A stretch of DNA of 64,000 bases from Minisyncoccia bacterium (GTDB lineage Bacteria > Patescibacteriota > Minisyncoccia > SW-4-49-11). A program made the position numbers and the translations under genes. The notes beneath the pieces are model-generated. The model saw only the letters and a list, made by a program, of their open reading frames with translations. It was not told the DNA's origin and did not search any database. The stretch covers positions 4,735 to 68,734 of the forward strand of contig JBIKVS010000003.1 of assembly GCA_044356725.1 (NCBI GenBank). Reading direction: 5' to 3'. Below are positions 10,505 to 50,525 of the stretch, piece after piece (position 1 is the first letter of the stretch; each line of letters begins with the position of its first letter).

Positions 10505-10870
10505 GTAAGAAAATTGTGGATTGGGAGTTGTAAATTATAAATTGTGAATGGTGAGTTATTAATTGGGAGTTGGGCATCTGTCTCCCTTCGGAGGGAGTAC
10601 CCGTAGGGGGAGGGTGGATAATGCTTAAAATACTAAAATAAACTATTGTTTGTATTAATATTAAAATCTATCCACCACCGGCACTTCGTGCCACCTCCTC
10701 CAAAGGGGGACAAAATAGGTACAGGCGACTGGAAGGTCGCCCCTACGAATACAAAACACAATGGAGGGATAAACGTTTACCTCCCGTAGGGATGTCTCCG
10801 CTACCAATATAATGTCGGTGGGGGCGCCAACTCTACGAAATTCATAATTTATCATTCATAATTAAAATTA
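10505..10870. repeat. GC-rich hairpin-dense modular element (family copy 1) with degenerate direct repeats at its 5' end
   Basis: The rpsB-ftsW spacer is unusually long (about 450 bp). It holds direct repeats aattgtgNatNggNgagtt x3 (10512-10580), module A gtctcccttcggagggagtacccgtagggggagggtggata (10580-10620), a long-range complement tatccaccacc (10669-10679), hairpins ggcac-ttc-gtgcc and ggcgac-tggaa-ggtcgcc, and module C ggggcgccaactctacgaaatt + ttcataatttatcattcataatt (10820-10865). Confidence 0.6.
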
Positions 10871-16050: not shown

Positions 16051-18522
16051 TTATCGCAACTGTTCTAATTTCAGACGGGCAGGCTCAGCCTTAGGGTCAA
16101 GCTCTAATACCTTTTGATAATTTTGTTTTGCCAAATCAAACTTTTTCTCAATCTCATAAATCTCACCCAGTTTGAAGTATACATTGGTGTAATTTGGGAA
16201 AGTTTCTAATAGTTTATTATATACAGCTATAGCCTCTATATATTGATTATTATTCTGATAAGCTAAGCCCAATAAATACACTAATTCCTGATTAGCTGGT
16301 ATAGATTTTTCATTCACTATCTGCACATATTCTTCTAGAATATCAATCTGCTCTTCATAAGCTTCACTTAAAGATAATAAATCATAATAATTTTTGTAAG
16401 CTTCAGCTGAAAATTTATTTTTATCTATAGTAGTATTGAGAATAGATTTAGCTTTTTCTAATTGTTCTGAATTAATCTTTTCCCCTTTTTGAGCTTGTCT
16501 AGCATAATATTGAGCCTCATAAATATCCCAATCTTGAGATTGAGGCTTCAGGTCTCTACCTTTAGATATAAAGGCTAGGTATTCATTTTCATCTACTTCA
16601 CCATATTGATGTATTAGTGAAGATAGCTCTAATTGCCAATATATGACTCTGCTATCTAGTGTGAATTTAGTTTTATATTCATCAATTAATTCTTGAGTTT
16701 TTTGGATATTATCTTGAACAGTCTTTTGTTTTTCTGGATCTATATTAGATCTCACATTATTCTCATTATTGCTATTGAATAACTCGAATGATTGTGCATT
16801 AATTTTCTTAATCAAAGCTTGAATATACAAATTAGTATATTCAACCATATAAGGAGATTTCATTTGAGCTTGAGATAATAGTTTCACTTGCTCTTCCAAA
16901 TTATCCTGTACTTGACTAGCCCGCACAATATATGCTTGAGATTGTATAATATTATATATTTTACTAGAACCAAGAATAACCAAGGATATTGAAAAAAGAG
17001 TAATAAAAGTAAATAAAGAAGATATAGAAGCTGGAATTGTATTAATATCCAAATTTAATTTGAATATAGGTTTAAAATATTTAGTAAATATATTACTCCA
17101 TAAAACTAAAATAATAATAAATATAACTTTATTAATAATTGAAAATGGTATCAAAAACAATCCCCCTAAACTTAAGATTAAAGGCAATATTTCAACAGGC
17201 ACAGTTTTTTGGATTAGCACAACTCTCAAAATGGATAATAAAACCCATAAAGCTAATAAAATTAATAGCCCAGATACTATAACTCCATTCTTGACTATTA
17301 TATTAATAATTTCATTAAATAAAGTCTCAAAACTAAAGCCTGAGAGTTGTGGAGATATATTATCAGGAGCAAATCTATCCCAAGCATAAATAATATTACC
17401 GCTACCAAACCAAGTATCTGACTGAATACTTTGTCTCATAATATCTAAGCTAATATCTAGACCAGGTTTAGCTATTATGGGATATTCTTGTATTTGAATA
17501 TTATCCTGAAAAGGTCTTATTATCATAGCTGAGATTATCGCTATAATTATTATTCCTGATATAGCCGAAGCCCTAATAGTGATTAGTCTGGACTTAGATT
17601 GCAAAGTATGTCTTGAAGATATTTTTTTAAGATAAAATATAGTATGAACTACTAAATTAAGGATGCTCAATATATACATACTATTACCAGATAGTCGAAT
17701 TAAAACTAAAATATGAATGATAATAGCTAAATAATAAAATACATTAAACACCTTATAAATGAAAGTCTTAGAATTAATCTTGGCTAAAATAGTAAATATG
17801 AAGTTAATAGAAAGCAGGGTCAATAATCCTAATTCCTGAGGAGATTCTGTTAGCCAAGTATTGGTAGGTTGTAATCTAGTTAAGATTGAGAATCTAACTA
17901 ATACATCAGACCAATATCCAGCAATTCCTGATATCCCGGCTCCTACTAAGATTAAAATTGATACAAAAAATGACAATATACTAAGAGCTTTTTGACTTAG
18001 AAATAATTTCAAACCTATATAAAAAACAACCAAAAATCCAATCACTATCCCAGCATCAAAAATTCTAGCCGTACTCCCCCAAAAAGCTAAACGATTTGGA
18101 TTAATAAAAGTAATACCAAATACCGCAAGTCCAGATATTATAAATAAAATATCCCCTAAAGTAATAGCCACTGAATGCTTAATAAGGCCAAATATCCAGA
18201 ATATACTAGCTAAAAGCAAGAATCCAGTTACTCCAAATACAAAAACTATAGCCTTTGGTAATTGCCAAACACTAGACCAGTCTAAAACTATAACAGCTGA
18301 TATAACAGCAAAAGATATAATATTATATAGAACTAATATCCACTGAGAATTGGATAAAGTTCTTGATTTAGGATTTACTTTTGCAATTTGTGATTCACTT
18401 TTAGAACTAGATTTTTTAGAAATATTGGATTTAGTAGTAGATTGTAATTCTACCGATGCTTTTTCCCGCAGATTAATTACAGCCTTTGGCTTAGAGTTTG
18501 ATTTTATTGAATTTAAATTCAT
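16051..18522 (-). CDS. Large polytopic membrane protein with C-terminal TPR repeats (O-antigen-ligase-like/unknown)
   Basis: 823 aa with many predicted TM helices, then clear TPR repeats (LGLAYQNNNQYIEAIAVYNKLLETFPNYTNVYFKLGEIYEIEKKFDLAKQNYQKVLELDP). Confidence 0.5.
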   Translation of the reverse strand: MNLNSIKSNSKPKAVINLREKASVELQSTTKSNISKKSSSKSESQIAKVNPKSRTLSNSQWILVLYNIISFAVISAVIVLDWSSVWQLPKAIVFVFGVTGFLLLASIFWIFGLIKHSVAITLGDILFIISGLAVFGITFINPNRLAFWGSTARIFDAGIVIGFLVVFYIGLKLFLSQKALSILSFFVSILILVGAGISGIAGYWSDVLVRFSILTRLQPTNTWLTESPQELGLLTLLSINFIFTILAKINSKTFIYKVFNVFYYLAIIIHILVLIRLSGNSMYILSILNLVVHTIFYLKKISSRHTLQSKSRLITIRASAISGIIIIAIISAMIIRPFQDNIQIQEYPIIAKPGLDISLDIMRQSIQSDTWFGSGNIIYAWDRFAPDNISPQLSGFSFETLFNEIINIIVKNGVIVSGLLILLALWVLLSILRVVLIQKTVPVEILPLILSLGGLFLIPFSIINKVIFIIILVLWSNIFTKYFKPIFKLNLDINTIPASISSLFTFITLFSISLVILGSSKIYNIIQSQAYIVRASQVQDNLEEQVKLLSQAQMKSPYMVEYTNLYIQALIKKINAQSFELFNSNNENNVRSNIDPEKQKTVQDNIQKTQELIDEYKTKFTLDSRVIYWQLELSSLIHQYGEVDENEYLAFISKGRDLKPQSQDWDIYEAQYYARQAQKGEKINSEQLEKAKSILNTTIDKNKFSAEAYKNYYDLLSLSEAYEEQIDILEEYVQIVNEKSIPANQELVYLLGLAYQNNNQYIEAIAVYNKLLETFPNYTNVYFKLGEIYEIEKKFDLAKQNYQKVLELDPKAEPARLKLEQLR

Positions 18523-18620
18523 TTTATTAATATAATATATTGTATTATATTATATTCTAACATATATTCAGAATTTATCTAAGTGTTTGTATCGGATAAT
18601 TATAAATTATATAATTATCT

Positions 18621-18850
18621 GTCCTCCCTTGGGGGAGGTGTCACCGCAGGTGACGGAGGAGGACTGAGCTAAATTCCCCTCTTGAGGGGTGTCAGGCAAA
18701 AGCCTGACGGGGTGGAAAAATAAATTATGAATGATTAATTATAAATTATGAACCGTAGGGGCGCTGACTCTACGAAATTAATGATTCCTAAGCCTGGTAA
18801 AGCATCCTAAATTTCGCGCGGGTGAGTCCAGGAATTTAATCCCCTCAGCG
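18621..18850. repeat. GC-rich hairpin-dense modular element (family copy 2)
   Basis: Module B gtcctcccttgggggaggtgtcaccgcaggtgacggaggaggac (18621-18663) with outer stem gtcctcc/ggaggac and inner hairpin gtcacc-gca-ggtgac. Further hairpins cccctc-ttga-gagggg and gtcaggc-aaaa-gcctgac. Module C aattatgaatgat.../ggggcgctgactctacgaaatt (18725-18778). Confidence 0.6.
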
Positions 18851-20848
18851 AAGAACGCAACGAAAAGTAAGATCACCAGCTGTGAAACTTGGGGTGTTTA
18901 AGGTTGCAAGAGCAAATATTCCTGAATTAGAAGCTGCATTTGCATTACCACCACGTAAAAAGCCAAAGGCAGTGGTACCTGTGACTGTACCTGCCTGGTA
19001 TTGCCCCATATTCTGACTACTATTCCAACTAGTATTACTTGGTCTAGTTAAATCATAGCTTAAAGTGCCGAAATTAGTTATTGCTGTCCATTGCTGCCAA
19101 AAGGTACCAGAACTGTTATTGGGTTTATCTTGTCCTAATATAGTATCACTTGTCCATTCCCAGGAATTTCCACTTAAGTCCCATATTACTTCTCCATTAC
19201 TAAGGGTATGAGTTCTTCTCTGTCCACTTGGACTAGTATTACCTGTTCCAGAGTATCCATCATTATCATCTGTACTTGCTGACAATAAAAGAGCAGGAGA
19301 GTTATCGGTATGTCCGGACCACAAGCCTCCACTGCCTACTGTTCCTCCTGTCCAGTTTACTCCTTGCGCTTCTATGTTACGAGCTATGGTCATCCATTCT
19401 CTATTATTAATTAAACTTCCTCCTGCTAAGTTACACGCTGTTATAGCATTAGTCTGATTTAGGGAGCCTAGTGGTGGCCCTGCTGCTTGTGTGGTTGCTG
19501 CTACTGTTGATGATCCGGTCTTTGCTTCATATTTCATTACACAAAAGTCTCTAGTACCATATAAACTACTTCCAGGTACTCGGATATAGCCTGTTGGACA
19601 TTGTAGATACGACCAACCTGAAGCAGTACAAACTTGCAATCCCCCATTATTATATCTTAAAGTTCCTACATTAGAGCTAGTACAATTAGTAGTATCATTT
19701 CCAACTCTAATCCCACCATTTACATCTAATCTAGCTTGTGGGGTTGTGGTCCCGATACCTATATTCCCATTACCTAATATTCTCATCCTCTCATTAGCTC
19801 CATTTGCTCCAGTGAAGAATCTTATATCTTGAGCGGTAGCATTGGTAGTAGCTAAGACTAATGGCTGCGCACTTGTTGTACCTAACCTACTACCACTTGT
19901 CCCGTTCCAAGCATCTATAGTTGCATTCCCTGTTAAACTCCAGCCTGAACCTACGCTACTAAGACTTACCTGACTAAACTGTCCACTACTATTAGCTAAT
20001 AAAACTCTATCGAAACCACTTGGAGTTGTAGTATTAGCCACTCCTCCTAAGAGTGATGAGGTGACGGCTGTATTAGAAATTGTAAATCTATTAACACCAG
20101 ATGTACTAAATGTATATTGCTGTCCAACACTCCATAAAGTATTAAAACTTAATCCAAAATAAGTTTGAATAAATGAATTAGCAGAATTATCAGTAAATAA
20201 AGATAGTATATTAGTATTATCTGTATTTCTAATATTAAATGCACCTGCATTATTAGATGTATTTCTGATTGAAAGAACGGGATTATTACCCAAAAAGACT
20301 CCTTCTCCTCCTGAGTTTAGAGAGAAAGAATTGGTACTAGTACCACCATTTGCTACTAATCTCATAGAATTTATAGCTGACATTGCTGAGCCTATTCTCT
20401 TACGAGGGCTGAATATCTCTTCATAAGATCCATTCCCATCCGCATCTAATTGTAATTCTACCCATAAAGAATCATCATTGATAGAGCTAAGAGTTGTATT
20501 TTGACTTCCTAATAAAATTTCAAACCTACCATCAACAATAGATAATAGTGGCGATACTATTCCTGAGTAAGTTGTACTTCCATCTCTTATCTCTTCATAT
20601 ATAGATGTACCCCCAGAGACTACATTGTACAAACTAAACTTAACTCTATATCCTCCATCTGCTAACACTGTCCCATCATTTTTCACAATGGTCCCCGAAT
20701 ACGGTATCTGAGCATTAATACCAGTCCCTGCTAAGACTTTATTATAATTAGATATGATTAAAAATATTATGAATAAGAAAGCAATAACCCATCTTAGATA
20801 TGACTTATATTGTATATTAGCAAGTTTGTAAGATTTAAACACATTCAT
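18845..20848 (-). CDS. Secreted/signal-anchored protein with C-terminal FGE-sulfatase-like (C-type-lectin-fold) domain
   Basis: N-terminal signal anchor; C-terminal roughly 250 aa carry CPTGYIRVPGSSLY..DFCVMKYEAK, GNSWEWTSD, FLRGG and a terminal FRCVLR, resembling the FGE-sulfatase/SUMF1 fold. Paralogous to the C-terminus of the 36614-37978 ORF. Confidence 0.55.
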   Translation of the reverse strand: MNVFKSYKLANIQYKSYLRWVIAFLFIIFLIISNYNKVLAGTGINAQIPYSGTIVKNDGTVLADGGYRVKFSLYNVVSGGTSIYEEIRDGSTTYSGIVSPLLSIVDGRFEILLGSQNTTLSSINDDSLWVELQLDADGNGSYEEIFSPRKRIGSAMSAINSMRLVANGGTSTNSFSLNSGGEGVFLGNNPVLSIRNTSNNAGAFNIRNTDNTNILSLFTDNSANSFIQTYFGLSFNTLWSVGQQYTFSTSGVNRFTISNTAVTSSLLGGVANTTTPSGFDRVLLANSSGQFSQVSLSSVGSGWSLTGNATIDAWNGTSGSRLGTTSAQPLVLATTNATAQDIRFFTGANGANERMRILGNGNIGIGTTTPQARLDVNGGIRVGNDTTNCTSSNVGTLRYNNGGLQVCTASGWSYLQCPTGYIRVPGSSLYGTRDFCVMKYEAKTGSSTVAATTQAAGPPLGSLNQTNAITACNLAGGSLINNREWMTIARNIEAQGVNWTGGTVGSGGLWSGHTDNSPALLLSASTDDNDGYSGTGNTSPSGQRRTHTLSNGEVIWDLSGNSWEWTSDTILGQDKPNNSSGTFWQQWTAITNFGTLSYDLTRPSNTSWNSSQNMGQYQAGTVTGTTAFGFLRGGNANAASNSGIFALATLNTPSFTAGDLTFRCVLR

Positions 20849-24447: not shown

Positions 24448-24590
24448 AGACGGAAGAAAGGTTATACTTATTTACTATATTATATTGTACCTAAAATATA
24501 GTAAATAATCAATATATTGTATGAGATGATGAAATCGTAGACATTGAGTCAAGGAATGAAAGTAATCCATAGAGTATCAGACAATTAACT

Positions 24591-24846
24591 GTCCTCCCTT
24601 CTACCTACGGCAGACAGGTGGGAGAGGTGGCCCCGTAAATGGGTCGGGAAAACTGGAGTTTTCCTGTGGAGGAAGGCAACGAGGTCAAAGACCGAGTGTT
24701 GGAAACCGTGGCTTTCCAAGGAACAAATCCCATTTGCGAAGACGGAGGAGGACTTCAGGCGGACGTAAGCTCCCACCTATGGTCTATACTTCATAATTCA
24801 ATCTCTATCCACCCTCCCCCTTCCGGTACTCCCTCCTAAGGGAGAC
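24591..24846. repeat. GC-rich hairpin-dense modular element (family copy 3, expanded)
   Basis: Module B 5' half gtcctccctt (24591) and 3' half gacggaggaggact (24741-24757) are separated by a GC-rich insert of about 140 nt. Module A is in inverse orientation: atccaccctcccccttccggtactccctcctaagggagac (24808-24846). The AT motif ttcataattca lies adjacent. The ORFs predicted here on both strands are judged spurious. Confidence 0.6.
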
Positions 24847-24901
24847 AAAATACATCTCAATATTAAAGTATTGTCTACGATGTTTCTAATCTTTTTAAAT
24901 G

Positions 24902-25396
24902 TTACAAAATTTCTTGAATTTTTTTATATACTTGTTCTAATATTAGCTTGTCCTCCAGAGATATTTTCTTTAGAACAAATGCCTGTGCTTTTTGCCCTAT
25001 AAATCTCTCTGCTCTAATCCCAACTCTCACTCTAGTTACAGCTGGAGAAATATGCTGAAATATCGAGTCTACACCATGATGGCCTCCACTACCTCGATTA
25101 GTTTGAATTTTATATTCACCTAAAATAATATCTGAGTCATCATGAATAATTATAATCTCACTATCTTGAATATTATAATATTGCTTCACTGCTAAAACAG
25201 CTTGTCCAGAGTTATTCATATAGGTATGTGGTTTGAGATAGATATGATCTCCTTGTTTATAAATTGACCCTAAAAATTGTTTTTTATAGCCAAAATCTGC
25301 TCTATTAGTAATGATATCTAAGAATTCAAATCCTATATTATGATAGGTATCTCTGTAATTATCTCCAATATTACCAAGTCCTACTATTAATTTCAT
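24902..25396 (-). CDS. pth: Peptidyl-tRNA hydrolase
   Basis: N-terminal MKLIVGLGNIGDNYRDTYHNIGF and other Pth family motifs; 164 aa. Confidence 0.85.
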   Translation of the reverse strand: MKLIVGLGNIGDNYRDTYHNIGFEFLDIITNRADFGYKKQFLGSIYKQGDHIYLKPHTYMNNSGQAVLAVKQYYNIQDSEIIIIHDDSDIILGEYKIQTNRGSGGHHGVDSIFQHISPAVTRVRVGIRAERFIGQKAQAFVLKKISLEDKLILEQVYKKIQEIL

Positions 25397-34650: not shown

Positions 34651-36552
34651 TTAATCCAGAGTACCGTTGGAGTTATATTTAGCTATAAAGGAATCTGTTC
34701 CTCCTATACTAGTTAGCTCTTGAATAATGCCACCTTGTCCAAAATTAGATAAACCTTGGAAATAACCTACTACTAAAACATTACCATCTATATCCACATC
34801 AACGCCTCTACCAGAGTCTGCACCTGATCCACCAGCTCTCCTAGCCCAGGCTAATGTTCCATTGGCATTATATTTTGCTATAAAGGCATCTTGTGCTCCT
34901 GCACTAACTAATGATGTCTGATTAGATTCACCTTGACCAAAAGTTGCCGTACCCTCAAAGTATCCAGTTATTATGGAACTTCCATCTGTATTTATGGCAA
35001 TATCAATAGCTAAATCTCCTCCATTTCCTCCAGCTTTCTTAGCCCAAGCTAATGTTCCGTCTGAATTATATTTAGCTACATATATGTCTGCTTGTACTCC
35101 TGTACTGACTAATGTTGTTTCATTTGACTCACCCTGTCCAAAGACTGCTGTCCCCCAGAAAAATCCAGTTACTATACTACTCCCATCACTATGCATACCT
35201 ATATCTCTAGCCCAGTTTATATCTGCTCCTATTGACAAGACTTTTTTTGCCCATATAATACTTCCATCTGAATTGTATTTAGCTATATAGCTATTATAAG
35301 TTCCTGAGGCAGTTAAAATTGTCTGATTAGGGTCACCCTCACCGAAAATAACAGAATTAGTGCTAGCAAACTGTCCTGCAACAACAAATGTTCCATCTAT
35401 ATTATTACTAATTCCATATCCCCATTCCCAAGAATTACCACCTATTCTTTTAGACCAGGCTAATGTACCATTAGAATTATATTTAGCTATAAAGGTATCT
35501 GTAGCACCTCCACTAACAAGAGTAGTAGCATTGGCTTCTCCCTGTCCAAAGACTGCTGTCCCCTCAAAGTATCCAGTTACCAAAGCACTGCCATCAGAAT
35601 TAGCAGCTAATCCGAAGCCATATTCTCTTTCACCAGTACCACCTGCTCTCTTAGCCCAAACTAAATTACCATCCGTAGCATATTTTGCAACAAATATATC
35701 TCTACTTCCTGCACTGACTAGAGTTGTGGCATTAGGTTCTCCTTGTCCAAAGACTGCCGTACCTGTAAATGAACCTGTTACAATACTTGTCCCATCTGCA
35801 TATCCTATAATATAGTTACCCCCATAATCTTCACTAGTACCACCTGCTCTTTTGGCCCATGCCAAAGTTCCACTGGGATTATATTTAGCTATAAATATAT
35901 CTCTACTCCCTGCACTGACTAAAGTTGTAGCATTAGGTTCTCCTTGTCCAAGGATAGTAGTACCTTCAAATGAACCTGTAACTAAAACACTACCATCACT
36001 TAACTTAGAGACCCCTCCACTTTTATCCAAACCACCAGATCCCCCAGCTTGGACTAGAAAAGTTTGAGTTGGAGTTATAGTATTGATAACCAAATCTTGC
36101 TCTAATTCTGCTTTATTAGCTCTGAGACTAATCTGATTATTCGAGTCTTTAGCAATTTCATAACCTGTTTCTCCAACTATTGTATCGGTATCTTTGGGAA
36201 TTTCACTTAAGTATGTAGGGACCAACACTCTTAAATCTATCTTACCATCACAGTATCCTGTACTCGGTAGTGTATCTTCTATAGTAAGATTGCCTGTATC
36301 ACATATCTCTATATATGTATTAGTAGGTATGTTTAAATCTACAAATCCCCTATTAACTGCATTATATTGCTGTAATGCATTATAGATATCATTAATTGAG
36401 ACTTGTCTCTCAAGATTTCTAGATTGTGAGATTTGTCTACTAGGATTTATAGCTACTAGAACAATACTAGATAATATACCTATTACAACTATGGTCAAAA
36501 GTATCTCTAATAATGTAAATCCTTTATTACTTATCTTATTATATTTATTCAT
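34651..36552 (-). CDS. Prepilin-type N-terminal domain fused to SBBP-like beta-propeller repeats (large pilin-like adhesin candidate)
   Basis: Leader MNKYNKISNKG|FTLLEILLTIVVIGILSSIV; the C-terminus has about ten repeats of ...GTAVFGQGE.N.TTLVS.G..D.FIAKYN..G.L.WAK.AGG..., matching the SBBP beta-propeller repeat pattern. Confidence 0.65.
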   Translation of the reverse strand: MNKYNKISNKGFTLLEILLTIVVIGILSSIVLVAINPSRQISQSRNLERQVSINDIYNALQQYNAVNRGFVDLNIPTNTYIEICDTGNLTIEDTLPSTGYCDGKIDLRVLVPTYLSEIPKDTDTIVGETGYEIAKDSNNQISLRANKAELEQDLVINTITPTQTFLVQAGGSGGLDKSGGVSKLSDGSVLVTGSFEGTTILGQGEPNATTLVSAGSRDIFIAKYNPSGTLAWAKRAGGTSEDYGGNYIIGYADGTSIVTGSFTGTAVFGQGEPNATTLVSAGSRDIFVAKYATDGNLVWAKRAGGTGEREYGFGLAANSDGSALVTGYFEGTAVFGQGEANATTLVSGGATDTFIAKYNSNGTLAWSKRIGGNSWEWGYGISNNIDGTFVVAGQFASTNSVIFGEGDPNQTILTASGTYNSYIAKYNSDGSIIWAKKVLSIGADINWARDIGMHSDGSSIVTGFFWGTAVFGQGESNETTLVSTGVQADIYVAKYNSDGTLAWAKKAGGNGGDLAIDIAINTDGSSIITGYFEGTATFGQGESNQTSLVSAGAQDAFIAKYNANGTLAWARRAGGSGADSGRGVDVDIDGNVLVVGYFQGLSNFGQGGIIQELTSIGGTDSFIAKYNSNGTLD

Positions 36553-40874: not shown

Positions 40875-43800
40875 CTATTTTAATCTTAACAAATAAGTTC
40901 CACTCTGGTTATTATAAACCTGAAACCTCCCTCCAACTACTATCTTTCCATCTGATTGGATAGCGATAGTATTGACAGTCTCATTAAATCCTGTACCTAT
41001 CTCAAAACTATTATCTCTACTTCCATTACTATTGAGTCTTATTATTCTATTAGCTGATGCTCCTCCTTGATCTATAATTTCTGTATAATCATATTCTTCA
41101 TTATACTCTAACTCTCCCTGATATAACTCAAACCCTCCTCCTACTACTATCTTTCCATCTGATTGGATAGCGATAGTATTGACAGTCTCATTAAATCCTG
41201 TACCTATCTCAAAACTATCATCTCTACTTCCATCATTATTTAAACGAATTATTCCATTAGCTGAGGATCCTCCTTGATCTATAATTTCTGTATAATCATA
41301 TTCTTCATTATACTCTAACTCTCCCTGATATAGGTTAAAATATCCTCCAACTACTATCTTACCATCTGATTGGATAGCGATAGTATTGACAGTACCATCA
41401 AATCCTGTGCCTATCTCAAAACTATTATCTCTACTTCCATTACTATTGAGTCGGATTATGCTATTAGCTGATGCTCCTTTATAATTGCTAAAGTCTCCTC
41501 CTACTATTATCTTTCCATCACTTTGGATAGCGATAGTATTGACAGTCTCATTAAATCCTGTACCTATCTCAAAACTATCATCTCTACTTCCATCACTATT
41601 TAAACGAATTATTCCATTAGCTGAGGATCCTCCTTGATCTATCATTTCTGTATAATCATATTCTTCATTATACTCTAACTCTCCCTGATATAGGTTAAAA
41701 TATCCTCCAACTACTATCTTACCATCTGATTGGATAGCGATAGTATTGACAGTACCATCAAATCCTGTGCCTATCTCAAAACTATTATCTCTACTTCCAT
41801 TACTATTGAGTCGGATTATGCTATTAGCTGATGCTCCTTTATAATTGCTAAAGTCTCCTCCTACTACTATCTTTCCATCTGATTGGATAGCGATAGTATT
41901 GACAGTACCATCAAATCCTGTGCCTATCTCAAAACTATTATCTCTACTTCCATCACTATTTAAACGAATTATTCCATTAGCTGATTCTCCTTTATAATTG
42001 CTAAAACCTCCTCCTACTATTATCTTTCCATCACTTTGAGTTTTAACTATATCGACATCTGAGTCAAAAGAAATTTTATTGGTGTATTTAATTCTAAGTG
42101 ACAATCCACTATCAAAGTCAGTAGATCTACTACCGTCCAAATTAAATTTTAGAATACTTCCGATAGTAACGTCAATTGCTCCTCCATCAGTATTAAAGTT
42201 AGAAATCCATTCCTCATTTTCAAAATCTATCGTCTGCATATCAATTAATTCTCCATCTGCATTATATACATTATTAACTGTTGTAAACAAAGCTCCTCCT
42301 AGAAAAATAGTGTTATTAACTAATAACATTCTATCCGCGATATTAGGTGTTAATAAACTATTCATATCTAAACTAAAACTTGTATCTCTACTTCCATCAC
42401 TATTTAGTTTTAAAATATTTCCTCCAAAATCTTCAATTTCCCCAGAAAAATTTCTAAATAAGATAAATATAGTACCATCGCTTTGTTCATAAATATCTTG
42501 TATATAAAAGTATGTGTTTATACTTGGTAAAGATATATCTGAATTAAATGATAAATCTTTTTCACCATTGCTTGTTAACCTAATTAATCTATTTACTGAA
42601 TTGTTTTGATATGTTCTAAAATCTCCTCCTACCAATATCTTGCCATCAGTTTGTAACAATATACTGTTGACTACACCTCCACCAAACCAATCACCAAACC
42701 CTGACCCCATATCAAAGCTGCTATCTCTACTACCATCACTATTTAATCGAATTATTTTATTTGCTCCCAAGCCATTATAACTAGTAAAATTTCCTCCTAT
42801 CAATATCTTGCCATCTGACTGAACAACCAATTTATACACAGACCTATCTATACCTGAAAAACCCGTGCCTATATTAAAGCTTGTATCTCTACTTCCATCA
42901 CTATTTAATCGGATTATTCTATTTGCTCCTACACCATTATAACTAGTAAAATTTCCTCCTACTATTATCTTGCCATCTTCCTGTATGGCTAAAGTATTGA
43001 CAGAATCATCCCCGGCCGTTGTTCCATCCAGACTCCCCCTAAATCCTGTCCCTATATTAAAGCTTGTATCTCTACTTCCATCACTATTAAGTCTAACTAT
43101 TCCATTAGTTGATTCTCCTAGATACTCATTAAAATCTCCTCCTACCAATATCTTTCCATCTGACTGTTCCTTTATATCAAATACACAGCAACTTATGTCA
43201 CCTGAATTAAAACTTTCATCTATATCTCCATTTTGATTAATTCTAAATATATTATTGATATAATCACTATTAATTGTATTTACTAGTATATTACCATCAC
43301 TTTGTAATTCGAAAACAGTAGATTGTATGAGTTCAGATTCTAAAAAATTGTCAATATCAATAATGTACCTATTGGAATCAGAAATTAATTCAAACCCAAA
43401 ATTTCCTGTGTAAAAATCTTTATCTATTATTCCTGTGGCTGTGTTTAAAGGAGGATTTATACCATCATCTACATCATCTGTATCTGGAGGGATAACTGAT
43501 GGATTTGGAGTAGTTGGGATATTAGGTGTAATTGGATTTATAGGTAAATTAGGTACACTAGGAATACTTGGGACATTCGGTATACTTGGTTTATTAGTTA
43601 TACTTGGTAATTCTATTGGCTTATTATTTGTAATAGGTGGTTTATAAACTTCTATTGGAGAATATCTCAAAGGCTGACTTCTTATACCCCTATATTCTCC
43701 CCTTATATTATTAACTATTGTTGCTATACGTTGTTCTCGTTTTTCCTCATTCTCTCTTGTTACTACTGTGCTATTTCTATCATCTACATCTTGATCTCTG

Positions 43801-43958
43801 TTATTCTCTACTTTACTATTTTCTATCTTATTAACTGATTCTATATTTAATTCATCAATATCTGTATTTATATTATATATAATATATACTCCTAATACTA
43901 ATCCTATACTGATTCCTATTGTTAATAGGATATTTTTTAAATTTACTTTTCTCTGCAT
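40875..43958 (-). CDS. Giant surface protein with delta-60-type beta-propeller repeats and a Pro-rich stalk
   Basis: N-terminal TM; Pro-rich linker (PSIPNVPSIPSVPNLPINPITPNIPTTPNPSVIPP); then more than 10 repeats of IIRLNSDGSRD.SF.IGTGF.GTVNTIAIQSDGKI.VGG.F, matching the delta-60 repeat pattern. Confidence 0.6.
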   Translation of the reverse strand: MQRKVNLKNILLTIGISIGLVLGVYIIYNINTDIDELNIESVNKIENSKVENNRDQDVDDRNSTVVTRENEEKREQRIATIVNNIRGEYRGIRSQPLRYSPIEVYKPPITNNKPIELPSITNKPSIPNVPSIPSVPNLPINPITPNIPTTPNPSVIPPDTDDVDDGINPPLNTATGIIDKDFYTGNFGFELISDSNRYIIDIDNFLESELIQSTVFELQSDGNILVNTINSDYINNIFRINQNGDIDESFNSGDISCCVFDIKEQSDGKILVGGDFNEYLGESTNGIVRLNSDGSRDTSFNIGTGFRGSLDGTTAGDDSVNTLAIQEDGKIIVGGNFTSYNGVGANRIIRLNSDGSRDTSFNIGTGFSGIDRSVYKLVVQSDGKILIGGNFTSYNGLGANKIIRLNSDGSRDSSFDMGSGFGDWFGGGVVNSILLQTDGKILVGGDFRTYQNNSVNRLIRLTSNGEKDLSFNSDISLPSINTYFYIQDIYEQSDGTIFILFRNFSGEIEDFGGNILKLNSDGSRDTSFSLDMNSLLTPNIADRMLLVNNTIFLGGALFTTVNNVYNADGELIDMQTIDFENEEWISNFNTDGGAIDVTIGSILKFNLDGSRSTDFDSGLSLRIKYTNKISFDSDVDIVKTQSDGKIIVGGGFSNYKGESANGIIRLNSDGSRDNSFEIGTGFDGTVNTIAIQSDGKIVVGGDFSNYKGASANSIIRLNSNGSRDNSFEIGTGFDGTVNTIAIQSDGKIVVGGYFNLYQGELEYNEEYDYTEMIDQGGSSANGIIRLNSDGSRDDSFEIGTGFNETVNTIAIQSDGKIIVGGDFSNYKGASANSIIRLNSNGSRDNSFEIGTGFDGTVNTIAIQSDGKIVVGGYFNLYQGELEYNEEYDYTEIIDQGGSSANGIIRLNNDGSRDDSFEIGTGFNETVNTIAIQSDGKIVVGGGFELYQGELEYNEEYDYTEIIDQGGASANRIIRLNSNGSRDNSFEIGTGFNETVNTIAIQSDGKIVVGGRFQVYNNQSGTYLLRLK
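40930..42060. repeat. Near-identical intragenic tandem DNA repeats (360-bp super-unit made of 207-bp plus 153-bp sub-units)
   Basis: The 22-mer ggatagcgatagtattgacagt recurs at 40958, 41165, 41372, 41525, 41732 and 41885 (spacings 207/207/153/207/153). Long stretches are identical, e.g. about 41281-41510 against 41641-41870. Confidence 0.8.
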
Positions 43959-47101: not shown

Positions 47102-48970
47102 ATGAAAAAATATTCAGGATTTACATTATTAGAAATACTATTATATGTAGTTATTGGTGGAGTCACTTTAGCTGTAGCTGTATTTTCATTTGCTCAATTG
47201 AATAGACTCTCTACTTCTTTTAGAGTTAATAATGAATTAAATCAAACTGGCAGCTCAATTATTAGTCAAATTCAAAATATAATCAATGAAGCTGATACTA
47301 TTATAAGTCCCAAATTAGGTAATAATCCTGATAACACTCTAGTCTTGAGAAAAGGGAATGTCGACACTACTATAACCCAATCAGATAATAATATAGTTGT
47401 ATCTTATAGTGATAGTACCCCATCCTTCAATCTGAATCCAGCTGGGATACTAGCTGTAAACACTCCATCACCCACTCTATCATTCGAACAAATTGATACT
47501 CAAGAGAATAAAGATCCAAACAATATATCTCAAACTCTAAAGCTAAAATTTACTCTTAGGTATAACAAACCTGCCTTTAGTAGTTATGAATATGAGGCTG
47601 AGAAGGCTTTTGAAACTACTTTACAATTATCTAAAAAAGCCACTGCCTTTGAGCCTATTCTTAACACATATTCAACAGGAGCCAATGGAGTCGCTTATGG
47701 GTTAAGAAAATTAGTTGGATTTAATACTAATACCAATCTATTATCCTCAGCCTATAATGGACCTGCAATTAGAGTTAGAAGAGATACTGGATTAGATCAA
47801 AGTGAAATGGATATAGGCTTTAATTCTAGAGGAGAATTAGACACAGTAGCTTTACAAAATTTTGTTGGTTATCAAAACTTTTTTAATTATTCTGAAGATA
47901 TAACTAGTCCTAATGGTGGTTGGAGTTTGAATAATATAACAACCATATCAGATAATACAATAGCACCTGATGGGACTAATACTGCTGAGAAAGTTAATCT
48001 GAATACTGGTAATACTCAAAGATTTATATTAAAGGATACAAATATAGTCAGTGGGGCTACTTATACCGACTCCTATTATGTAAAAGCTAATAATAATTAT
48101 AATTTTGTTCAGATAGCAACTAGTACTGGTTTTTCAACCACAGCTTATCAGAACTATAATCTAAGCAATGGCACACTGGTAAGTTCATCTGGAGTTACTG
48201 CTGGGCAAGCTAATATTCAATCTGTAGGAAATGGTTGGTATCGTATTTCTCTCTCAGCCACAGCTACTGCATCTGGTGCTGGAAGAATGGTTTTAGCTAT
48301 TGTAAATTCAGCTACTTCTGCCAGATTAGAGAATGTCAATGTAGCTAATACTACAGACTCAATATTTGTATGGGGTGGCATGAGACATCTTGGGAACACC
48401 CTGAAGACTTATCAAAAAACAACTATCAATGCTAATACTGGGGACGGGTATATCTCTACTTGGTATGACCAATCTGGCAATAAGAATAATGCTATTCAAA
48501 CTAATACATCAGCTCAACCTAAAATTGTAGATGGAGTTACAGGAATAGTATTACAAAATAATAAACCAGCCATTAGATTTGATGGTTCTGATGACCAATT
48601 AGTAAATACATCTTTTAATAATGCTACCAACTCTACAGCATTCTTTATAGCTAGTAGACTCACTAACAATCAATCCTTTATGGCAAGATCTAACAATTAT
48701 GCTACCTTAGGAGCTACAGATTTATTCAATCCATATTATCTGAATAAATCTAGCACATCTGCAACACCTGGATCAGATACTAAAAATAGTCTAAATCTAT
48801 ATACAGCTATTAGAACTTCAGCTATTAATAGCACTCTTAATATAGGAGCTGGAAGTACTGGAAATTTCTTAAATGGTCATATATCTGAGCTAATTATATA
48901 TGATGGTAATAAATTAGCTAATAAATTAGATATTGAGAATAATCTTAGAGATTATTACGGAACTCCATAA
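47102..48970 (+). CDS. Prepilin-type N-terminus fused to a large LamG-like domain protein
   Basis: Leader MKKYSG|FTLLEILLYVVIGGVTLAV; C-terminal GNFLNGHISELIIYDGNKLANKLDIENNL, a LamG-type end; 622 aa. Confidence 0.6.
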   Translation: MKKYSGFTLLEILLYVVIGGVTLAVAVFSFAQLNRLSTSFRVNNELNQTGSSIISQIQNIINEADTIISPKLGNNPDNTLVLRKGNVDTTITQSDNNIVVSYSDSTPSFNLNPAGILAVNTPSPTLSFEQIDTQENKDPNNISQTLKLKFTLRYNKPAFSSYEYEAEKAFETTLQLSKKATAFEPILNTYSTGANGVAYGLRKLVGFNTNTNLLSSAYNGPAIRVRRDTGLDQSEMDIGFNSRGELDTVALQNFVGYQNFFNYSEDITSPNGGWSLNNITTISDNTIAPDGTNTAEKVNLNTGNTQRFILKDTNIVSGATYTDSYYVKANNNYNFVQIATSTGFSTTAYQNYNLSNGTLVSSSGVTAGQANIQSVGNGWYRISLSATATASGAGRMVLAIVNSATSARLENVNVANTTDSIFVWGGMRHLGNTLKTYQKTTINANTGDGYISTWYDQSGNKNNAIQTNTSAQPKIVDGVTGIVLQNNKPAIRFDGSDDQLVNTSFNNATNSTAFFIASRLTNNQSFMARSNNYATLGATDLFNPYYLNKSSTSATPGSDTKNSLNLYTAIRTSAINSTLNIGAGSTGNFLNGHISELIIYDGNKLANKLDIENNLRDYYGTP

Positions 48971-49233
48971 GTTTAGTTAATATTTTTTAAAGTAAGTTTA
49001 TGTTCTCTGAAATATAATACGGTAAATCTCAGTATTTTTTAAATCCAAAAGGACTGAGCTCTGCCTTCTAAAAATCACTACCTACTTTTTACCTCTTAAC
49101 CCATGTTTTCATAGATAAGCCTCGGCTTTTGTCATTGATGATCTGAGCTTATTTTCTACGGCCTTGAGATGTTTATTATATTTATTGTTTTCTCTCATCT
49201 ATTTTGGTGTTTAGATAAAGTTGGAAGATCTTA

Positions 49234-49331
49234 GTCCTCCTCCGTCACCTACGGTGACACCTCCCCCAAGGGAGGACAGTTCTTATCTTGTCTCCATTTG
49301 GAGGGAGTACCCGCAGGGGGAGGGAGGACAG
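49234..49331. repeat. GC-rich hairpin-dense modular element (family copy 4)
   Basis: Module B in reverse orientation, gtcctcctccgtcacctacggtgacacctcccccaagggaggacagtt (49234-49281), is the reverse complement of the 18621-18663 copy with one mismatch. Module A gtctccatttggagggagtacccgcagggggagggaggaca (49290-49330). It sits between convergent genes. Confidence 0.65.
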
Positions 49332-49334
49332 AGC

Positions 49335-50525
49335 CTACAGCCCAAATCTACCTTTGGTAGCATTGAAGTTTTGTTGAATTTCTTCTGGGGTAAGTGCTCT
49401 ACTATAAAATTTTGCAGAATATATTCTACCATTAAAAAATCCATAACTTGGGTAAGCGCCTATCAAATCTGTAGTGATTTTTACATTTGTTCTTGTACTA
49501 GCTAGACCATTTTTTATAAATGTTCCATTTATATAAAGAGAAGGAACTTTATTTGTATAATTTACTACTATATGAATTGGGGCATTTATAGTAACTGAGT
49601 GCGATAATAATGGAGGCATATAAGCAGCTGAATGCTCATAAACACTTATACCATTAGTTCCAACTGATATTCCAGAACCGGCATCAGGAGATGCAACAAA
49701 TTGAGGGCCAATTACATATTTTTGTCCTGATGTACCCCCAAAACCAGAATTAGTTTGTGATTCTATTTCGTGAGTTGTTTGTGGTAGGCACCAAATATCG
49801 TATGAAAAATTATTAAAAACATTAGAAGTACTTGAGGATACTCTATCATCGCCCCCATCAAAGACTAAAGCACCTCCATTAGCAGAGTTGTAGGTAGGAG
49901 TAGAAGGAGCTGGAGCAAGTGTCCCATTATTATTGTTCCCACTTAAATCAAACCAGGTATTTTGGGCTGTATTTAAACCTGGATAACTATTTATATTACC
50001 TGCATCTAGATGTAATACTAGTCCATTAGTGACTATAGATGGAGTGATTGTATTAGATTGTAGTTCAGTAGTAGCTTCTTTATTAATTACTCCTGACTTA
50101 TTAATTATAATAGACTTACTTACTCCCCCACCAGTTAAATCTATTTTAATAGAATCATTACTCAAGTCTAGTTCACCATTGATAAGCTTGAATGGTATGT
50201 CTAATGTCTGTTCTGAACTGACTGTGATGCCAGAATTGATTGTGATAATTTCAGGATATTGAGTAGATGTACAGGTTACTGCTGTTATAGTGTATGTTTT
50301 AGCAGTATTATCTATACATACTCTCCATTGAGAATCTTTATACTGATTTTTAGATAATTGTTGGGCTCTTAGCAATGCATTGTAGAGAGATTCATGGGCT
50401 GCACTTAAATCATTGCGGATTACTATACTAGATACTAAAGGTGTCGTAATAGCTATAAGAATAGCTATCAAAACTATTACTAAAGTAATTTCTATTAATG
50501 TAAAACCTTTATATTTACCCTTCAT
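49335..50525 (-). CDS. Pseudopilin/type IV pilin-like protein with C-terminal LamG-like domain
   Basis: Leader MKGKYKG|FTLIEITLVIVLIAILIAI; C-terminal GFFNGRIYSAKFYSRALTPEEIQQNF, a LamG-type end; last gene of the pilus block. Confidence 0.65.
   Translation of the reverse strand: MKGKYKGFTLIEITLVIVLIAILIAITTPLVSSIVIRNDLSAAHESLYNALLRAQQLSKNQYKDSQWRVCIDNTAKTYTITAVTCTSTQYPEIITINSGITVSSEQTLDIPFKLINGELDLSNDSIKIDLTGGGVSKSIIINKSGVINKEATTELQSNTITPSIVTNGLVLHLDAGNINSYPGLNTAQNTWFDLSGNNNNGTLAPAPSTPTYNSANGGALVFDGGDDRVSSSTSNVFNNFSYDIWCLPQTTHEIESQTNSGFGGTSGQKYVIGPQFVASPDAGSGISVGTNGISVYEHSAAYMPPLLSHSVTINAPIHIVVNYTNKVPSLYINGTFIKNGLASTRTNVKITTDLIGAYPSYGFFNGRIYSAKFYSRALTPEEIQQNFNATKGRFGL

Follow-up and report, generated by a model that had tools for sequence, protein, structure and literature searches.

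We analyzed a 98-nt GC-rich stretch at positions 49234-49331 of a 64,000-nt piece of contig JBIKVS010000003.1 from a Minisyncoccia bacterium (this piece is hereafter the window, and related loci are denoted by L and a number). The results suggest, with a probability that we put at roughly 0.7, that the stretch is the left end of a decayed DUF559 cassette (module B) accompanied by an extra solo module (module A), and that both are selfish repeats resembling the Rfam family Whalefall-1 (RF01762), driven by a nuclease and without a dedicated host function. At the level of sequence comparison, modules of this kind are shown to be the matched inverted ends of small cassettes, each encoding a predicted DUF559 endonuclease of ~125 aa (Vsr-like PD-(D/E)XK).

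The G+C content of the window is ~31%, most of its genes are carried by the minus strand, and islands of at least 63% G+C outside genes are confined to four intergenic regions (10565-10748, 18617-18716, 24593-24846 and 49234-49346). The 98-nt stretch sits in a 364-nt gap between two convergent pilin-like genes and contains two modules of ~44 nt whose heads face each other, separated by 8-11 nt according to the placement of their ends (Table 1). Both were detected with a covariance model, R1, which was made from 28 module sequences and run on the window with filters off. Only rows of types B, B' and A were used for training, because the stems fell out of register when every type, with types C and E and the Whalefall-1 seeds among them, was aligned with MAFFT. 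R1 took the place of an earlier hand-written hairpin scanner, which gave some false matches within genes and missed type A because hairpin 2 of this type has only 3 bp. Using a repeat finder, we found that 49230-49279 corresponds to 18619-18668 in reverse complement (96% over 50 nt). The segment 49289-49337 matches 10579-10627 at 84% over 49 nt and, in reverse complement, 24803-24852 at 86%.

These data bear out a preliminary description of this stretch, which had placed a GC-rich repeat copy, composed of a reverse-complemented module B followed by a module A, between convergent pilin-like genes; the repeat finder, R1 and the N-termini of the two genes all agree with it, and the similarity of about 85% that it gave between module A and 10580-10620 is confirmed by the repeat finder. 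The single mismatch that it reported between module B and its counterpart at 18621 was recovered in the hairpin 2 loop, which reads GTA in module B and GCA in the counterpart, although the matched core is 44 nt long (49234-49277 and 18621-18664) instead of 43 nt. The similarity exceeds chance by far and is not limited to simple GGAGG/CCTCC runs, which the preliminary description had named as the outcome that would speak against a repeat family, because it is positional and extends over the head, the two stems and the tail. Module A is a degenerate copy because hairpin 1 contains one A.G mismatch, and it ends 5 nt from the stop codon (49335-49337) of the 396-aa pilin-like gene. Folded jointly, the two modules are predicted to form a long imperfect hairpin (-51.5 kcal/mol on the plus strand and -53.8 kcal/mol on the minus strand, z ~-2.7 to -2.9).

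The tail of module B is directed at a DUF559 pseudogene, the ATG of which lies 35 nt past this tail. The N-terminal ~46 codons of the pseudogene are recognisable and the C-terminal catalytic half is deleted; about a third of the gene is left, and its frame reads MRENNKYNKHLKAVENKLRSSMTKAEAYL*KHGLRGKK*VVIFRRQ... (asterisks, stops). By tblastn, it aligns with the intact DUF559 protein of the Bacteroidia locus L062 (49% identity over 47 aa, E 2.7e-5) and with a 66-aa open reading frame (ORF) at the same place in the congener contig L087 (76% identity, E 2.6e-27), which is annotated by the Joint Genome Institute (JGI) as a very-short-patch-repair endonuclease. The homology rests on tblastn to the L062 protein, which itself scores 104 bits on the Pfam profile of DUF559 (PF04480); the 66-aa pseudogene product, used as a protein query, retrieved no sequence other than itself. 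The reading frame of the pseudogene runs into the 10-nt sequence GGACTGAGCT, located where the reverse module lies in intact cassettes and kept in both L087 and a second congener contig, L088. Since this sequence is the tail end of an inverted module, we regard it as a relic of the right end of the cassette, the remainder of which is deleted. The preliminary description was right that this sequence (ggactgagct) recurs; its positions are 49051-49060 and 18661-18670, not 49045 and 18659. It overlooked that the remainder of this intergenic region is a DUF559 pseudogene, and that the copy near 49050 is what is left of the opposite end of the cassette.

The intact arrangement is seen in L062, where a 125-aa ORF has modules on both sides: the forward module ends 7 nt before the ATG, the reverse module begins 4 nt past the stop codon, and both lie within longer inverted repeats. 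A search with the L062 protein returned 1247 homologues, many of them on ~1-kb contigs, and 80 metagenomic DUF559 loci (183 kb, oriented by the gene) were gathered by means of an alignment of 32 of these homologues. R1 detected 164 modules in these 80 loci. Of the modules located at most 100 nt upstream of the ORF match, 34 were forward and 4 reverse; of those at most 100 nt downstream, 44 were reverse and 5 forward; beyond 500 nt from the ORF match there were almost no modules. The tail of the forward module points towards the start codon, often at Shine-Dalgarno distance, and in about half of the cases it lies 0-30 nt from the ATG. When the upstream flank was aligned locally with the reverse-complemented downstream flank, the median score was 27 (14.8 for shuffled sequences), and scores of at least 24 were obtained in 44 of 66 loci. 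Moreover, identity is 72% between the paired ends of the same cassette and 50% between cassettes, a difference that none of 2000 permutations reached. The alignment of the DUF559 proteins contains an invariant E68-x-D70...H74 core, and the DUF559 profile matches PDB entries 3hrl (E 5.9e-24) and 3r3p, the catalytic domain of I-Bth0305I (E 1.2e-4). A survey of the PD-(D/E)XK superfamily puts Vsr, DUF559 and I-Bth0305I in one group (PMC3424549).

The tail-to-tail gap between the paired modules is 361-579 nt in the DUF559 loci, which corresponds to the length of the ORF, and 20-73 nt in loci of Paceibacteria, members of the candidate phyla radiation (CPR). The short-gap doublets of Paceibacteria look like the same ends minus the gene, and the window locus, with about a third of the gene remaining, is an intermediate. 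The layout of the window locus (a reverse module, a short spacer, a forward module, the gene and a reverse module) is also found in L097 and L153.

Whalefall-1 is the only Rfam family with any signal on the modules. A search of the whole window against Rfam, with gathering and E-value thresholds, returned only a tRNA-Phe and sub-threshold Whalefall-1 matches (13.8-19.0 bits, with a gathering cut-off of 37; Table 1), and ARAGORN found only the tRNA-Phe in the window. The layout of Whalefall-1 is present in both modules of the stretch, and its 16 seed sequences align with the modules in the head, hairpin 1 and the tail. In both, a head of 3-4 nt (GUGUC/GUAUC in Whalefall-1, CUGUC/UUGUC here) precedes a first hairpin that has C-rich/G-rich arms and a YNGG loop, after which come another covarying hairpin and a purine tail that closes with GAGGAC or GUGGAU; the covariation of Whalefall-1 on both stems is likewise found in the modules. 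The difference lies in hairpin 2, which in Whalefall-1 has ~9 bp and often a CUUG loop, whereas that of the modules in the window is shorter (3-7 bp) and has GNA triloops (6 bp with a GUA loop in module B, 3 bp with a GCA loop in module A). The modules in the window are therefore described here as relatives of Whalefall-1 that work like it, yet score below the threshold of the family.

Whalefall-1 was discovered in whale-fall metagenomes only, with no conserved downstream gene and no known function (Weinberg et al. 2010, PMC2864571), and the original description is silent on a multi-copy, inverted-pair nature and on a linked gene. The seed coordinates, in contrast, reveal head-to-head pairs on single contigs, and in L097 and L102 the DUF559 gene lies between Whalefall-1 matches above the gathering cut-off (55-75 bits), with a forward match on its upstream side and a reverse match on its downstream side; L097 contains a third copy upstream, head to head. 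We did not find this association described in the searchable literature, the coverage of which is incomplete, and the claim that the link is novel is provisional for this reason. A separate observation is a box, 'ttttgtaaggaat', which is conserved 40-70 nt upstream of the DUF559 ATG in L097, L102 and L104, between the forward Whalefall-1 module and the start codon, and which may be a promoter element of the marine cassettes.

Side-by-side reading of the modules revealed a shared plan, that is, a head (Y)UGUC, hairpin 1, 1-2 linker bases, hairpin 2 and a purine tail (GGAGGxGGAY, closing in G(U/A)GGA(U/C)). Hairpin 1 has a pyrimidine 5' arm, a purine 3' arm and a YNGG-type loop, and its arms vary among CCUCCC/GGGAGG, CCUCCU/AGGAGG, CUCCCU/AGGGAG, CCCCU/AGGGG and UCCCCCU/AGGGGGA. 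Hairpin 2 varies freely in sequence and length (up to 13 bp) with pairing always kept; its variants include GGCAC/GUGCC, GGCC/GGCC, GCCCU/AGGGC, GUCACC/GGUGAC and GCCU/AGGC, mostly with GNA triloops, which predominate in the Paceibacteria copies. R1 found 7 modules in the window (six at 50-61 bits and one at 14.5 bits, against a background of at most 10 bits), and 245 modules in 640 kb of related loci from Paceibacteria and a few Bacteroidota. In the 150 best modules, the alignment of which had been fitted to the R1 model, 94.2% of the stem cells were paired (79.3% in column shuffles), and double-sided changes numbered 160 against 60 expected, a value reached by 0 of 500 shuffles; such changes occurred in 7 of the 10 stem pairs. 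When the partner columns were slid by 1-3 positions, pairing fell to 49-86%. On the forward strand, G.T exceeded A.C in the stems by 11:1 with a detector that scores both alike, which hints that one strand folds by itself, as RNA or as single-stranded DNA. Two of the modules in the window (10578-10619 and 10670-10713) form an ORF-less tail-to-tail doublet with a 50-nt AT-rich spacer, type C modules occur at many other loci, and head-to-head pairs with gaps of 8-58 nt are found at other loci as well.

Table 1. Features of the 98-nt stretch, its surroundings and the other modules in the window
Feature	Position	Strand	Remarks
622-aa pilin-like gene	47102-48970	+	Prepilin-type GFTL(I/L)E N-terminus
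DUF559 (Vsr-like endonuclease) pseudogene	49198 to 49001	-	tblastn; two in-frame stops
Relic GGACTGAGCT of the tail end of a second, inverted module	49051-49060	+	Identical to module B tail/post-tail at 18661-18670
Weak terminator-like hairpin GGAGGA-CTAAGA-TCTTCC, then AACTTTATCT	49240 to 49223	-	Module B tail and flank
Module B	49234-49279	-	R1 61.1 bits, E 2.6e-17; Whalefall-1 19.0 bits; in minus-strand order CUGU, hairpin 1 CCUCCC-UUGG-GGGAGG (49275-49260), linker U, hairpin 2 GUCACC-GUA-GGUGAC (49258-49244), purine tail GGAGGAGGAC (49243-49234)
Spacer between module heads	49280-49287	.	Short, AT-rich, 8 nt
Module A, solo copy	49288-49329	+	R1 50.5 bits, E 7e-14; Whalefall-1 13.8 bits; in order UUGU, hairpin 1 CUCCAU-UUGG-AGGGAG, UA, hairpin 2 CCC-GCA-GGG, tail GGAGGGAGGAC
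396-aa pilin-like gene	49335-50525	-	Prepilin-type GFTL(I/L)E N-terminus; Laminin_G_3 domain
Module, type A	10578-10619	+	R1 55.5 bits
Module, type B'	10670-10713	-	R1 57.9 bits; hairpin 2 GGCAC-GAA-GUGCC; one C.A mismatch in hairpin 1
Module, type B (copy 2 of the preliminary description)	18619-18664	+	R1 60.9 bits; Whalefall-1 18.7 bits
Module, type C	18674-18717	+	R1 14.5 bits, E 0.04; CCCCU-CUUG-AGGGG, GUCAGGC-AAAA-GCCUGAC, tail GGGGUGGAA
Module, type A	24807-24848	-	R1 51.5 bits

Several other repeated elements were observed beside the modules. A GC-rich element of ~170 nt (24589-24756, plus strand) has a B-type head (CTGTCCTCCCTT) at its start and a B-type tail (GACGGAGGAGGACT) at its end, and its inner ~115 nt (core 24637-24753) is itself an interspersed repeat, with two copies in L026 (88-89% identity) and others in L014, L052, L075, L039, L088 and L028; the element looks like a second repeat family nested within a module. 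It has no Rfam match, and the region 24585-24860 folds as one RNA no better than shuffled sequences (z ~-0.5). A further recurrent hairpin module, (t)acAGGCGAC-nnnnnn-GTCGCCCCTACGaa, is located at 10722-10750 in the window and in L014, L022, L023, L029 and other loci, and often adjoins the two-hairpin modules in either orientation. Two short motifs are common to module-bearing intergenic regions, ggggcgcYRactctacgaaatt (10818-10843 and 18746-18770) and aattataaattRtgaa (10534-10549 and 18736-18753), and similar 'gtcggYgagggcaccgactctac' hairpins lie 3' of modules in L026 and L041. The noncoding sequence 24860-24895 (…aagattagaaacatcgtagacaatactttaat…), just past the stop codon of the gene at 24902-25396, is conserved in three species (flanks of L037 and L069) beside a type A module.

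We further compared the distribution of the modules among genomes. A 25-nt core of module A (22 specified bases) was searched as an exact pattern in a collection of 185,579 species-representative genomes and matched in 78 stretches, nearly all from Paceibacteria/Parcubacteria. Five metagenome-assembled genomes (MAGs) of this group contained about 19, 15, 13, 10 and 8 copies. Bacteroidota had single copies, for instance on a closed Microbacter chromosome of 3.5 Mb and on ~500-kb contigs, and one copy each was found in an Enterousia MAG and a Peribacteria MAG. The patterns of modules A and B had no match in 2.9 million viral contigs. This pattern of occurrence assigns the window to a CPR bacterium of the Paceibacteria type. 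Contigs identical to that of the window are present in several lake metagenomes, among them the Lake Mendota time series, and three of them stop exactly at the repeat. Independent metagenome assemblies break (L002, L004 and L008) or contain Ns (L089, 7262-7300) at modules past the pilin-like gene, as assemblies usually do at multi-copy repeats.

The modules also differ in position between close relatives. The congener contigs L087 and L088 share the gene order of the window over ~12 kb, with nucleotide identities of 82-85% and 80-83%, respectively; L089 was left out of this comparison, since its assembly has an N gap at the repeats. At the orthologous junction of L087, module B (7162-7207) directly follows the stop codon and has the same downstream sequence, and module A is missing, as it is at the orthologous site in L088. 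The window is longer there by 52 nt (the reverse complement of module A plus the spacer), flanked by 9-nt direct repeats TGTCCTCCC that belong to the module sequences themselves. The L088 junction contains a fragment of the hairpin 1 of module B, a module of another type and a reversed hairpin-1 fragment. Likewise, the gap between the FtsW and protease genes contains two modules in L088 and none in the window, and L010, which is syntenic with 16051-20848, has its modules at another junction than the window. Intergenic regions with modules have a median length of ~460 nt, compared with 20-200 nt for those without. Among the accessory genes recurring beside modules in Paceibacteria are those for a PemK/MazF toxin (4 of 7 copies adjacent), an NYN-domain protein (4 of 4) and RhuM (for example, L075 457-855, L052 2511-3026 and L045 2528-3535, together with homologues), and the modules may mark islands of accessory DNA.

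Under the favored explanation, module B would be the surviving left end of a cassette whose gene has decayed to 49198-49001 and whose right end persists as the 10-nt relic, and module A would be an additional solo module lying against the head of module B. The nuclease would drive the spread by cutting at or near modules, after which repair would copy the cassette into other module pairs in a homing-like manner, with the modules serving as homology; alternatively, the nuclease might mobilise its ends in the way that RAYT, the REP-associated tyrosine transposase of repetitive extragenic palindromic (REP) sequences, mobilises REPs. We consider break-and-repair the likeliest route, because a nuclease of the DUF559 fold cannot transpose DNA alone. 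The ORF-less tail-to-tail doublets of Paceibacteria would then be gutted cassettes or empty target sites. It is also possible, as a bolder and more tentative extension, that a previously unrecognised class of selfish elements, each a free-standing nuclease gene with matched two-hairpin ends (Whalefall-1), is powered by the DUF559 proteins found in this clade, that the nuclease recognises hairpin or cruciform ends, perhaps via a conserved T.G juxtaposition, and that ORF-less doublets colonised Paceibacteria and are shared almost base for base with Bacteroidota; as part of this tentative extension, near-identical modules in the two groups would indicate recent DNA exchange in the same habitats.

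Several points weigh against the nuclease-driven explanation. The ~600 kb of Paceibacteria loci yielded no intact DUF559 gene, L062 from Bacteroidia being the only locus with one, and a partner nuclease in the Paceibacteria lineage is unproven because of this absence among the sampled loci. The 66-aa ORF of L087 matches PF04480 (positions 3-41) at 17.3 bits (E 0.0046), below the cut-off of 20.6. R1 detects modules at only about half of the cassette ends (E < 0.01), and some cassettes end in a simpler one-hairpin form. For the whole cassette, neither a target-site duplication nor a clean empty/filled pair was found, and classical transposition is unlikely because a PD-(D/E)XK nuclease alone cannot carry out strand transfer. 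The difference in module A could be due to deletion in the relatives between the 9-nt direct repeats, instead of insertion in the window. Furthermore, selection at the RNA level would also account for the covarying stems and the excess of G.T.

On another view, the modules benefit the host at the RNA level by terminating or pausing transcription or by protecting 3' ends with stem-loops, here for both pilin-like genes, and the preliminary description had likewise proposed, from the position in a convergent gene junction, that the stretch may double as a bidirectional terminator. Besides covariation and the G.T excess, the very stable predicted folds and the location of module A so close to a stop codon are consistent with such a role, as is a weak terminator-like hairpin overlapping the tail of module B (49240-49223), which is also present in L087; it is the sole such site in 48800-49500, where shuffled sequences lead one to expect 0.4 ± 0.8. 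However, no U-tract follows module A or module B on either strand. With ORFs called in the low-GC loci, the share of intergenic regions containing modules was 16% for tandem, 20% for convergent and 19% for divergent regions, the last of which contain no 3' ends, and there was no orientation preference (41 modules sense and 27 antisense to transcription in tandem regions). Because of these similar frequencies and the lack of U-tracts, the stretch is best read as something other than a dedicated bidirectional terminator, and the proposal is not supported. Moreover, module A has a broken pair in hairpin 1 and is dispensable in two congeners. We therefore consider a host role at the RNA level quite unlikely, while an RNA-stabilising or pausing side effect of the stable hairpins is conceivable. 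A related view, which would make each module an independent small non-coding RNA gene acting in trans, follows the filing of Whalefall-1 in Rfam, and Whalefall-1 was rated as certainly RNA from its covariation and tetraloops (PMC2864571). This is difficult to reconcile with dozens of copies per small genome in both orientations, abutting stop and start codons, with decayed copies and with locations that vary between congeners; no promoter/terminator pattern was seen around the modules, and we regard a trans-acting role as highly improbable.

Two other explanations concern the link with the DUF559 gene itself. The modules might be cis-regulatory RNAs of this gene, comprising a 5' leader, in which an anti-Shine-Dalgarno-like arm competes with a Shine-Dalgarno-like tail, together with a stabiliser on the 3' side, and the RAP/Vsr-like protein itself might bind them, in which case the gene alone would spread and the ORF-less copies would be leftovers of dead genes. 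The forward module does lie immediately upstream on the sense strand, with its tail near the ATG as described above, and two purine runs, the proximal one and that of the tail, are available as pairing partners for the 5' arm of hairpin 1. There is also a weak RAP-domain match, and Vsr-like FASTK/RAP proteins are reported to bind RNA (PMC11879112). Such regulation leaves three things unexplained, namely the ORF-less modules, which number in the hundreds in genomes without an observed DUF559 gene, the inverted downstream duplicate that matches the upstream copy, and the tandem and head-to-head arrays; we consider regulation of this kind unlikely. The modules could instead form an ordinary REP/REPIN family that relies on a RAYT (an IS200/IS605-like Y1 transposase) for mobilisation, with the DUF559 link being incidental. 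They are indeed short GC-rich palindromic intergenic repeats, often in inverted doublets, and GNA triloops are very stable in single-stranded DNA. However, neither a RAYT nor any other transposase was found among the recurrent module neighbours (530 clustered ORFs of module-bearing loci, compared with Pfam), which included PemK/MazF, NYN, RhuM, SpoU, photolyase, TruB, cupin and histidine phosphatase. In addition, divergent regions are not depleted of modules, and the orientation-specific flanking of DUF559 over 80 loci is too regular for an incidental link, so that an ordinary REP/REPIN family appears very improbable. The purine tails were considered as G-quadruplexes as well, and the modules as DNA uptake sequences, but the DUF559 context accounts for more of the observations.

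The cassettes resemble several known systems in part. Like the REP sequences, bacterial interspersed mosaic elements (BIMEs) and REPIN-RAYT systems of Proteobacteria, the modules are short GC-rich intergenic hairpin repeats that often form inverted doublets, and the nuclease gene itself lies between inverted repeat copies, as in REPIN-RAYT. Unlike REPs, their unit consists of two hairpins and a purine tail without a bias to the 3' ends of genes, and the enzyme is a Vsr-like PD-(D/E)XK nuclease (DUF559) in place of a Y1 HUH transposase. Miniature inverted-repeat transposable elements (MITEs) and their parents (such as Correia, RPE and BOX) are similar in that ORF-less copies share their ends with a longer coding version (tail-to-tail ~38 versus ~395 nt here), and in their terminal inverted repeats, modular arrays, swollen intergenic regions and variable presence between relatives. 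They differ in that neither a DDE or other transposase nor a target-site duplication was seen with the modules, the coding version of which carries only a small nuclease. The GC clusters of yeast mitochondria are also short, GC-rich, hairpin-forming and apparently mobile sequences in the AT-rich intergenic DNA of a reduced genome, although their sequences and hosts are unrelated and, to our knowledge, no linked nuclease gene is known for them. Finally, the homing endonuclease I-Bth0305I (EDxHD/Vsr-like; PDB 3r3p; PMC3239194), which shares its nuclease fold with DUF559, is a precedent for a Vsr-like nuclease driving the spread of its own gene. The kinship is at the level of the fold, and I-Bth0305I lies in a group I intron of a phage and carries an additional domain for DNA binding, whereas the cassettes described here are free-standing, hairpin-bounded and chromosomal.

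These results provide a concrete genomic setting for Whalefall-1, which has been without a function since 2010, by placing it at both inverted ends of a nuclease cassette, and they suggest a testable role for part of the very large DUF559 family, the small stand-alone members of which have no assigned function. They also indicate that CPR genomes, which are usually called streamlined, carry dozens of selfish hairpin repeats that inflate intergenic regions and break assemblies, and that near-identical modules mark horizontal exchange between Paceibacteria and Bacteroidota. If the nuclease recognises structured DNA ends, this would represent a new mobilisation chemistry beside the HUH, DDE and serine/tyrosine enzymes.

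The modules affect gene annotation as well. Spurious ORFs of 53-94 aa cross them (49221-49505 on the plus strand, 49283-49444 on the minus strand and 7243-7443 in L087), because the GC-rich modules are without stop codons, and gene callers annotate such ORFs at several loci, for example as 'genes' of 80-140 aa consisting of modules only. Such stretches should be masked as repeats instead of being annotated as small ORFs (of 94 and 53 aa here and of 66-140 aa at other loci).

With respect to the neighbouring genes, PilC- and PilB-like genes come after the 396-aa pilin-like gene. The LamG part in the middle of the latter gene (49400-49853) has no nucleotide alignment with L087 or L088, while both of its flanks are 80-90% identical; this part is a hypervariable surface domain. 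Elsewhere in the window, two large minus-strand genes (40875-43958 and 34651-36552) contain long in-frame tandem repeats, with periods of 153/207 nt and ~201 nt, respectively, and the former encodes DUF5122 beta-propeller repeats according to the contig annotation.

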